A stretch of 64,000 nucleotides of DNA from Escherichia coli (GTDB lineage Bacteria; Pseudomonadota; Gammaproteobacteria; Enterobacterales; Enterobacteriaceae), in assembly GCF_003334355.1 (NCBI RefSeq), contig NZ_QOWP01000014.1; one strand, given 5' to 3'. The position numbers were made by a program, and so were the translations under genes. Numbering within the stretch: position 1 is the first letter of the stretch; each line of letters begins with the position of its first letter. The notes beneath the pieces are model-generated. The model was not told the origin of the DNA. It worked only from the letters and a program-made list of their open reading frames with translations, and did no database searches. This document shows positions 2,795-3,597 of the stretch, one piece after another.

Positions 2795-2992
2795 ATGTCA
2801 GAAACTATTACGGTGAATTGCCCAACCTGCGGGAAAACGGTGGTGTGGGGTGAAATCAGCCCGTTTCGGCCATTTTGCTCCAAACGTTGTCAGCTGATCG
2901 ACCTCGGAGAATGGGCTGCTGAAGAAAAACGAATCCCCAGCAGTGGCGATCTTTCCGAAAGCGATGACTGGAGCGAAGAGCCAAAGCAGTGA
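2795..2992 (+). CDS. yacG: DNA gyrase inhibitor YacG (zinc-binding)
   Basis: 65-aa ORF with CPTC...C..C zinc ribbon (NCPTCGK...CSKRCQ). Confidence 0.9.
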
Positions 2993-3015
2993 CATTTGTC
3001 TGATGCCGCACGTAG

Positions 3016-3211
3016 GCCTGATAAGACGCGGGCAGCGTCGCATCAGGCATCTTGTGCAAATGTCGGATGCGGCGTGAACGCCTTATCTGACCTACAAAAA
3101 CAAATTTATCAATGAGTTATAAATCCCTGTAGGCCTGATAAGACGCGCCAGCGTCGCATCAGGCATCGTGTGCGAATGTCAGATGCGGCGAAAACGCCTT
3201 ATCTGACATAC
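3016..3211. repeat. REP/BIME cluster of four REP copies in alternating orientation
   Basis: Copies of gcctgataagacgcg..cagcgtcgcatcaggc and gatgcggcg.aacgccttatctgac at 3016-3048, 3065-3095, 3133-3164 and 3182-3211. Confidence 0.85.
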
Positions 3212-3597
3212 ACACGCTTAAGCTTCGCAATTACCTGTTCATTGGCTGGCGGAAACTCATCGGCATTAAGACCGACCAGCGACATCCACTCACCGGGTTG
3301 CCCTTCTTTACCCCACGGCTCCCCTTCCCAGCGTTCGACCAGCCAAAACCACAGTGTTATATGCCTGTCCGGGAATTCATATTCCAGTTTTTCAAATAGC
3401 GAAAAATGTTGGGGGGTAATCCCGACTTCTTCCTGAAGTTCACGCACCACCGCCTGTTCCGGCGTTTCACCCATTTCAATTTTACCGCCGGGAAACTCCA
3501 GTTTATTCGCCATGTGCGCATCTGCTGCGCGACGCGTTATAAAGATTTCATTGTTCTCGTTGCGAATAATACCTACCGCAATTTGCAGCTTTTTCAT
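3199..3597 (-). CDS. mutT: 8-oxo-dGTP diphosphatase MutT (Nudix); 132 codons here, last codons lie inside a REP copy
   Basis: Nudix box GGKIEMGETPEQAVVRELQEEVG; starts MKKLQIAVGII; ends ...AKLKRVYVR. Confidence 0.9.
   Translation of the reverse strand: MKKLQIAVGIIRNENNEIFITRRAADAHMANKLEFPGGKIEMGETPEQAVVRELQEEVGITPQHFSLFEKLEYEFPDRHITLWFWLVERWEGEPWGKEGQPGEWMSLVGLNADEFPPANEQVIAKLKRVYVR

Follow-up and report, generated by a model that had tools for sequence, protein, structure and literature searches.

A REP element at the end of Escherichia coli mutT carries the stop codon and, in a common class of alleles, the last three codons

The mutT-yacG region and its REP elements

The window, meaning the whole stretch of 64,000 nucleotides analysed here, contains mutT with secA upstream of it, and yacG, zapD and coaE are convergent with mutT, as in E. 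coli. The spacer between mutT and yacG is 206 nt long, and a search for an intrinsic terminator between the two genes found none. The features of the region are as follows.

2795-2992, plus strand: yacG (DNA gyrase inhibitor), lying beyond the BIME and convergent with mutT (open reading frame list, annotation of matching genomes)
3012-3048, plus strand: second z2-type REP (inverted-repeat arms 3016-3029 and 3035-3048; direct repeat D2)
3061-3095, minus strand: second y-type REP, GTAG intact (core match, y alignment, direct repeat)
3129-3164, plus strand: z2-type REP, starting with GTAG (inverted-repeat arms 3133-3146 and 3151-3164; direct repeat D2)
3167-3216, minus strand: predicted extended RNA hairpin of 7 + 9 + 4 bp with an AA/GC bulge, spanning mutT codons 128-132 and the stop (RNA fold)
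3177-3211, minus strand: y-type REP at the mutT end, GTAT replacing GTAG, 13 nt within the mutT CDS (core match, y alignment)
3199-3597, minus strand: mutT CDS (8-oxo-dGTP diphosphatase), 132 codons plus stop (open reading frame list, translation; same 399-nt CDS in strain 214-4)
3199-3201, minus strand: TAA stop of the 132-codon mutT allele, which is the TAA of the REP's GATAAGG, within the 5' arm of the REP stem
3208-3210, minus strand: mutT codon 130, TAT (Tyr), where K-12 has its TAG stop; the G-to-T substitution falls on base 3208 (gap-free alignment)
3211-3213, minus strand: mutT codon 129, GTG (Val), CTG (Leu) in K-12; the change at 3213 destroys the CT 5' of GTAG

In the translated open reading frame MutT ends in ...VIAKLKRVYVR, and the original prediction of a frame ending ...AKLKRVYVR with its stop at 3199-3201 agrees with both the open reading frame list and the translation. 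The protein is a MutT: phmmer matches residues 1-129 to PDB 1MUT (E 6e-85) and to 22 further PDB MutT entries, all of 129 aa, with 98% identity to the K-12 and PDB protein over residues 1-129. The Nudix box (G38-x5-E44-x7-R52-E53-x2-E56-E57-x-G59) is readable in the window translation.

The string that had been quoted as a REP copy, gatgcggcgaaaacgccttatctgacatac, corresponds exactly to 3182-3211. The y REP core GATGCGGCGNNNNCGCCTTATC matches 3182-3203 with 0 mismatches, and the 64-kb window holds four such matches to this core against 0.01 expected by chance; together with the alignment to three other y copies, the core match bears out the identification of the repeat at the mutT end as a REP. 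In the y/z1/z2 nomenclature, with its associated lengths (PMC8266576), the four elements alternate as y(-) z2(+) y(-) z2(+), which gives two 116-nt y+z2 units and the layout of a BIME, and the two y copies form a direct repeat with a spacing of 116 nt. The element is also dispersed, a 631-nt query matching a median of 13 places per genome. A conserved AA/GC mismatch bulge is a feature of the REP stem (PMC8266576), and in the predicted fold unpaired AA and GC flank GGCG....CGCC.

In two respects the mutT-adjacent copy departs from a standard REP. It is not wholly extragenic, as 13 nt of it (3199-3211) lie within the mutT CDS. In addition, the GTAG tetranucleotide that is conserved before every E. 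coli REP (PMC8266576) is here GTAT. GTAG stands at the aligned position in the K-12 copy and in two of the three other y copies of the window, and is displaced by one base in the copy near 55.0 kb; among the four y copies (3177-3211, 3061-3095, 42.4 kb and 55.0 kb), loss of the tetranucleotide is confined to the one overlapping mutT. Judged by its sequence, the mutT-adjacent copy is a decayed REP and not a different element. Cleavage by the E. coli TnpA_REP requires both a CT cleavage site and GTAG (PMC8266576), and the mutT-adjacent REP is probably inert for this enzyme because the linked changes remove both the CT dinucleotide and GTAG.

The number of BIME units varies between strains, with two 116-nt units in the window and in K-12 and one in O157-type and W-type strains, and in B2-like strains the mutT-yacG distance is only 87 nt. 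In E. coli MBT-5 (NZ_CP058682.2, locus 983-1091) the transposase gene of the IS110-like element IS621 lies about 270 nt after mutT, in the usual place of yacG, so that an insertion sequence is found in or beside the BIME. In E. coli OkiPb01713 the sequence CTGTAGT CTGTAGG, a tandem duplication of 7 nt, sits precisely where the mutT stop meets the REP, and the protein is still 129 aa.

The mutT stop codon in K-12 and in the window

The mutT gene of K-12 MG1655 (NC_000913.3 111044-111433) encodes 129 aa with the C-terminus KRL, as the original prediction had it. It ends AAA CGT CTG TAG GTC AGA TAA, and the window allele ends AAG CGT GTG TAT GTC AGA TAA, with no gaps between the two. A single G-to-T change at window position 3208, which turns TAG into TAT, keeps the frame open for three further codons, to the TAA of the REP's GATAAGG; it is because of this substitution that the window mutT is three codons longer than that of K-12. 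The proposal that a point change in the REP moves the stop by three codons is thus upheld, with the gap-free K-12 alignment placing the one responsible change at 3208. Residue 129 is altered by a separate change, from CTG to GTG (L129V), at 3213, a site 2 nt outside the REP.

It had also been proposed that the REP encodes the last four codons and the stop. The REP and the stop stand, but the count of four does not: the canonical 35-nt y REP takes in Y130, V131, R132 and the stop but reaches just one base, the third, of codon 129, so that three whole codons are involved. A point absent from the original prediction is that the K-12 stop lies within the same REP, its TAG being the TAG of the REP's conserved GTAG tetranucleotide. 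Since the K-12 TAG is part of this GTAG, the REP ends mutT in both alleles.

Over 1,040 nt the window differs from K-12 at 12 positions, none of them in mutT codons 1-113. K-12 MutT (b0099; PDB 1MUT, 3A6S and others) therefore shares residues 1-113 with the window protein, and its gene has the same REP at the same position and spacing, without an indel. It differs in stopping at the REP's GTAG, where the window has TAT followed by codons that complete the tail YVR, and in the substitutions D114E (codon 114, 3256), P121Q (codon 121, 3235-3237) and L129V of the window form.

That a repeat element supplies a protein C-terminus holds for this gene, the REP coding for Y130, V131 and R132 as well as the stop. 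Small repeats such as MITEs, ERIC and Correia-type elements include copies that extend into the ends of genes and provide their last codons or stops. The mutT case resembles them in that a dispersed palindromic repeat likewise gives the last codons and the stop, and differs in that the element is an E. coli y-type REP which contributes only three residues, in an unconserved tail. REP elements are accordingly not strictly extragenic, of which mutT is a clear, small case: the stop codon of Escherichia mutT is part of a REP, and one base change within the REP alters the length of the protein.

Frequency and history of the long and short alleles

A haplotype census was made by megablast with exact 30-nt probes in 5,426 complete E. 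coli genomes. Each probe finds its own haplotype only, because megablast needs a 28-nt exact word. The counts below are to be read with two limits in mind, namely that the probes extend only through codon 130 and that complete genomes sample the species with a bias.

...AAGCGT GTG TAT: 564 genomes
AAACTT...GTG TAT (B2-like): 937 genomes
GTACTT...GTG TAT: 144 genomes
...CGC GTG TAC: 207 genomes
Sense codon at 130, total: 1,852/5,426 (34.1%)
AAACGT CTG TAG (K-12 type): 1,817 genomes
AAGCGT CTG TAG (W type): 1,377 genomes
TAG at 130, total: 3,194/5,426 (58.9%)
Unclassified at codon 130: 380/5,426 genomes

Long forms are therefore present in no less than 34% of the complete E. coli genomes, which answers the question of whether the 132-aa form is common among E. 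coli alleles aligned with K-12 (1,852 of 5,426 genomes). The two changes hardly ever occur apart; the intermediate CTG TAT is found in 3 and GTG TAG in 0 of the 5,426 genomes. Eight genome loci with a sense codon at 130 were sampled, and each of them, like the window, is annotated or translates as 132 aa. The VYVR tail is present in 64 complete genomes and the exact window allele, marked by Q121, in 36 of 5,426, and the exact window MutT, like that of K-12, occurs on at least 1,000 contigs. Protein cluster mates of the window MutT are 132-aa forms with the tails VYAG, VYVG and LYVG.

The original prediction named as its refuting condition that reference alleles already have 132 aa with this tail, and they do. 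The complete genome of strain 214-4 contains an identical 631-nt stretch with its CDS annotated as the RefSeq protein WP_000736008.1, identical to the window protein, and annotated genomes of O145:H28 and O121 have the same VYVR tail. The 132-aa alleles of O157:H7 (WP_000736023.1), O145 (WP_000736002.1) and B2-like strains (WP_000736044.1) show the same GTG TAT read-through into the REP. The O145 tail is VYVR, identical to that of the window; the others vary with the REP variant, being VYVG in O157:H7 and VYAG or VYVE in B2-like strains. The mutT bodies of these alleles carry 5-8 silent or replacement differences, and the BIME is shorter in O157 and B2-like strains. The 132-codon mutT is an ordinary variant and already annotated, since about a third of sequenced E. 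coli carry the long form. For annotation, the 129-aa and 132-aa proteins should each be accepted as normal and not flagged as truncated or erroneous.

The ancestral state was approached with orthologs from 80 Enterobacteriaceae loci, a set without representatives of E. coli, E. fergusonii or Shigella, so that the polarity of the change is read from five further species or clades of the genus, namely E. albertii, E. whittamii, another two Escherichia species and a divergent "E. coli". At all five of these non-coli loci MutT has 129 aa and the stop, TAG or TAA, is at the K-12 codon, directly followed in 5/5 cases by GTC(G/A)GATAAGGCG, i.e. by the same REP (GTC(G/A)GATAA). Because the position of the stop and the REP beside it are shared by all five, 129 aa with a REP-borne stop looks ancestral for Escherichia, and the read-through would have arisen within E. 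coli. Beyond the genus, Salmonella MutT has 131 aa and the REP is absent at its stop. One Citrobacter locus ends ...CAG GCC GGA TAA, with the last codons and stop inside a REP, a second has the REP-supplied end ...CAG GCA GGA TAA and a third reads CTG TAG-GCCGGATAAGG. These REP-supplied ends in Citrobacter are cases independent of that in Escherichia. At 18 of the 80 loci a REP-like motif covers the mutT stop or lies no more than 15 nt away, and REPs appear to have landed repeatedly at the 3' end of mutT in Enterobacteriaceae. A 424-nt contig labelled Alicyclobacillaceae bacterium I2511 (QXHL01000193.1) encodes a Salmonella-like MutT with the tail RQFAP and is probably contamination of that assembly.

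Within E. coli, TAT is carried by B2-like, O157 and O145 strains and TAG by K-12-like and W-like strains, the latter as in the outgroups. This distribution needs recombination, reversion or repeated origin. In the window three neighbouring sites (3217, 3213 and 3208) agree with the O145/O157 haplotype and the flanking sites are K-12-like; an AAG-GTG-TAT cluster in a K-12-like mutT body suggests either that recombination brought in a short tract, no longer than about 70 nt, or that mutation was recurrent.

Origin and effects of the long form

The window mutT is very probably a common natural length variant of a functional MutT. The proposed sequence of events begins with a REP/BIME lying directly against the end of mutT in the genus Escherichia, the ancestral TAG stop of the 129-aa protein being the TAG of the REP's leading GTAG. 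CTGTAG would then have become GTGTAT in one old E. coli haplotype. With tyrosine in place of the stop, ribosomes would read on through three codons supplied by the REP stem's 5' arm and terminate at the TAA of GATAAGG; because the extra residues are encoded by the REP, the tail would follow the REP variant and read VYVR, VYVG, VYAG, VYVE or LYVG. The K-12-like lineage of the window would have gained AAG-GTG-TAT by a short recombination tract and not by new mutations. The chance that the extra codons instead reflect an assembly, sequencing or annotation error is negligible, and this explanation is refuted by the identical 631-nt stretch in an independent complete genome, by the 36 complete genomes and at least 1,000 contigs that carry the allele, and by the independent annotation of the long form by NCBI in many lineages. 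A different origin for the two base changes would be template switching within one molecule, a quasi-palindrome correction of the REP hairpin, in place of independent point mutations. Both changes create pairs with the opposite arm (GUGUG-CACAC and AUGUC-GACAU) and they are almost perfectly linked, as the 3 and 0 intermediates show. However, sites as close as 4 nt remain linked whatever the model, the pairing pattern was noticed post hoc, and a complete copy of the opposite arm predicts CGTGTGCGAATGTC where CGTGTGTATGTC is observed, so that no simple templated copy was made. Template switching in any form is distinctly unlikely, and a strict version was rejected, the observed arm not being a straight copy of the opposite one.

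The other explanation to be weighed against a plain length variant concerns expression. It holds that placing the stop in the REP stem, together with the longer hairpin, alters ribosome stalling and trans-translation and, through them, the MutT level and the mutation rate. REPs less than 16 nt from a stop codon are reported to down-regulate translation through ribosome stalling, with mRNA cleavage and tmRNA tagging of the upstream gene's product (Liang, Rudd and Deutscher 2015, as relayed in PMC12306157). Such REPs, within 15 nt of a stop, are like that of mutT in that the REP stem starts at or before the stop of the upstream gene. The mutT REP differs from them in overlapping the CDS and encoding residues. 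The <16-nt rule, as given there, fits mutT, yet it already holds for both alleles, with the stop beside the stem in K-12 and inside it in the window. The predicted window hairpin is much stronger than that of K-12 (-30.6 kcal/mol, z -4.8, against -17.6 kcal/mol, z -0.4, for the K-12 stretch, and -17.0 kcal/mol for K-12 in the comparison of alleles). Of the four nearby differences between the two sequences, three put a base pair where K-12 has a mismatch (CTG to GTG, TAG to TAT and CCGAC to CTGAC). However, hairpin strength does not track allele class: a 129-aa W-type allele folds at -26.2 kcal/mol and the 132-aa forms range from -16.5 to -30.6 kcal/mol. A general rule that the long form has the stronger hairpin was dropped, as stability does not separate 129-aa and 132-aa alleles. 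A literature search linking mutT to REP-dependent stalling found nothing, searches on mutT with REP or its stop codon, on a MutT C-terminal extension and on 132-aa alleles found nothing relevant, and mutT was not found in the RepRanger supplements. An effect of this kind would be compatible with the TAG-to-TAT mechanism of the common length variant, but it is considered unlikely.

An extended form of the same idea combines the REP's fate with expression. The linked CT-to-GT and GTAG-to-GTAT changes would disable the REP for TnpA_REP and shift the stop into a longer hairpin, altering stalling, with the outcome that lineages would differ heritably in MutT level and in A:T-to-C:G mutation rate; this combination is judged very unlikely. 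Strains null for mutT are strong A:T-to-C:G mutators. The length variant would be of greater importance only if the geometry of stop and hairpin tunes MutT expression, and hence mutation rate, between lineages.

At the level of the protein, the three extra residues lie beyond the conserved part of MutT. Conservation across the 80 loci ends at L126, and from residue 127 orthologs differ in both sequence and length: MutT has 129 aa at 36 loci, 130 at 22, 133 at 12, 131 at 6, 134 at 2, and 132 and 135 at one each. An AlphaFold2 model of the 132-aa form has a mean pLDDT of 89.9 and keeps the fold, with the last helix at 117-130 and the final two residues as coil of lower confidence. Carriers of the 132-aa form include very successful lineages. 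The extra tail is probably neutral, a reading drawn from natural variation and the spread of carriers, because the tail is unconserved, the model keeps the fold and successful lineages carry the long form. For the 132-aa P121Q allele itself, 8-oxo-dGTPase and antimutator function is putative, its basis being that 36 complete genomes and at least 1,000 contigs carry the allele. Proline at residue 121, two residues after the invariant N119, is conserved at 78 of 79 Enterobacteriaceae loci, and with this near-invariant position replaced by glutamine the window protein may behave unlike other 132-aa forms.
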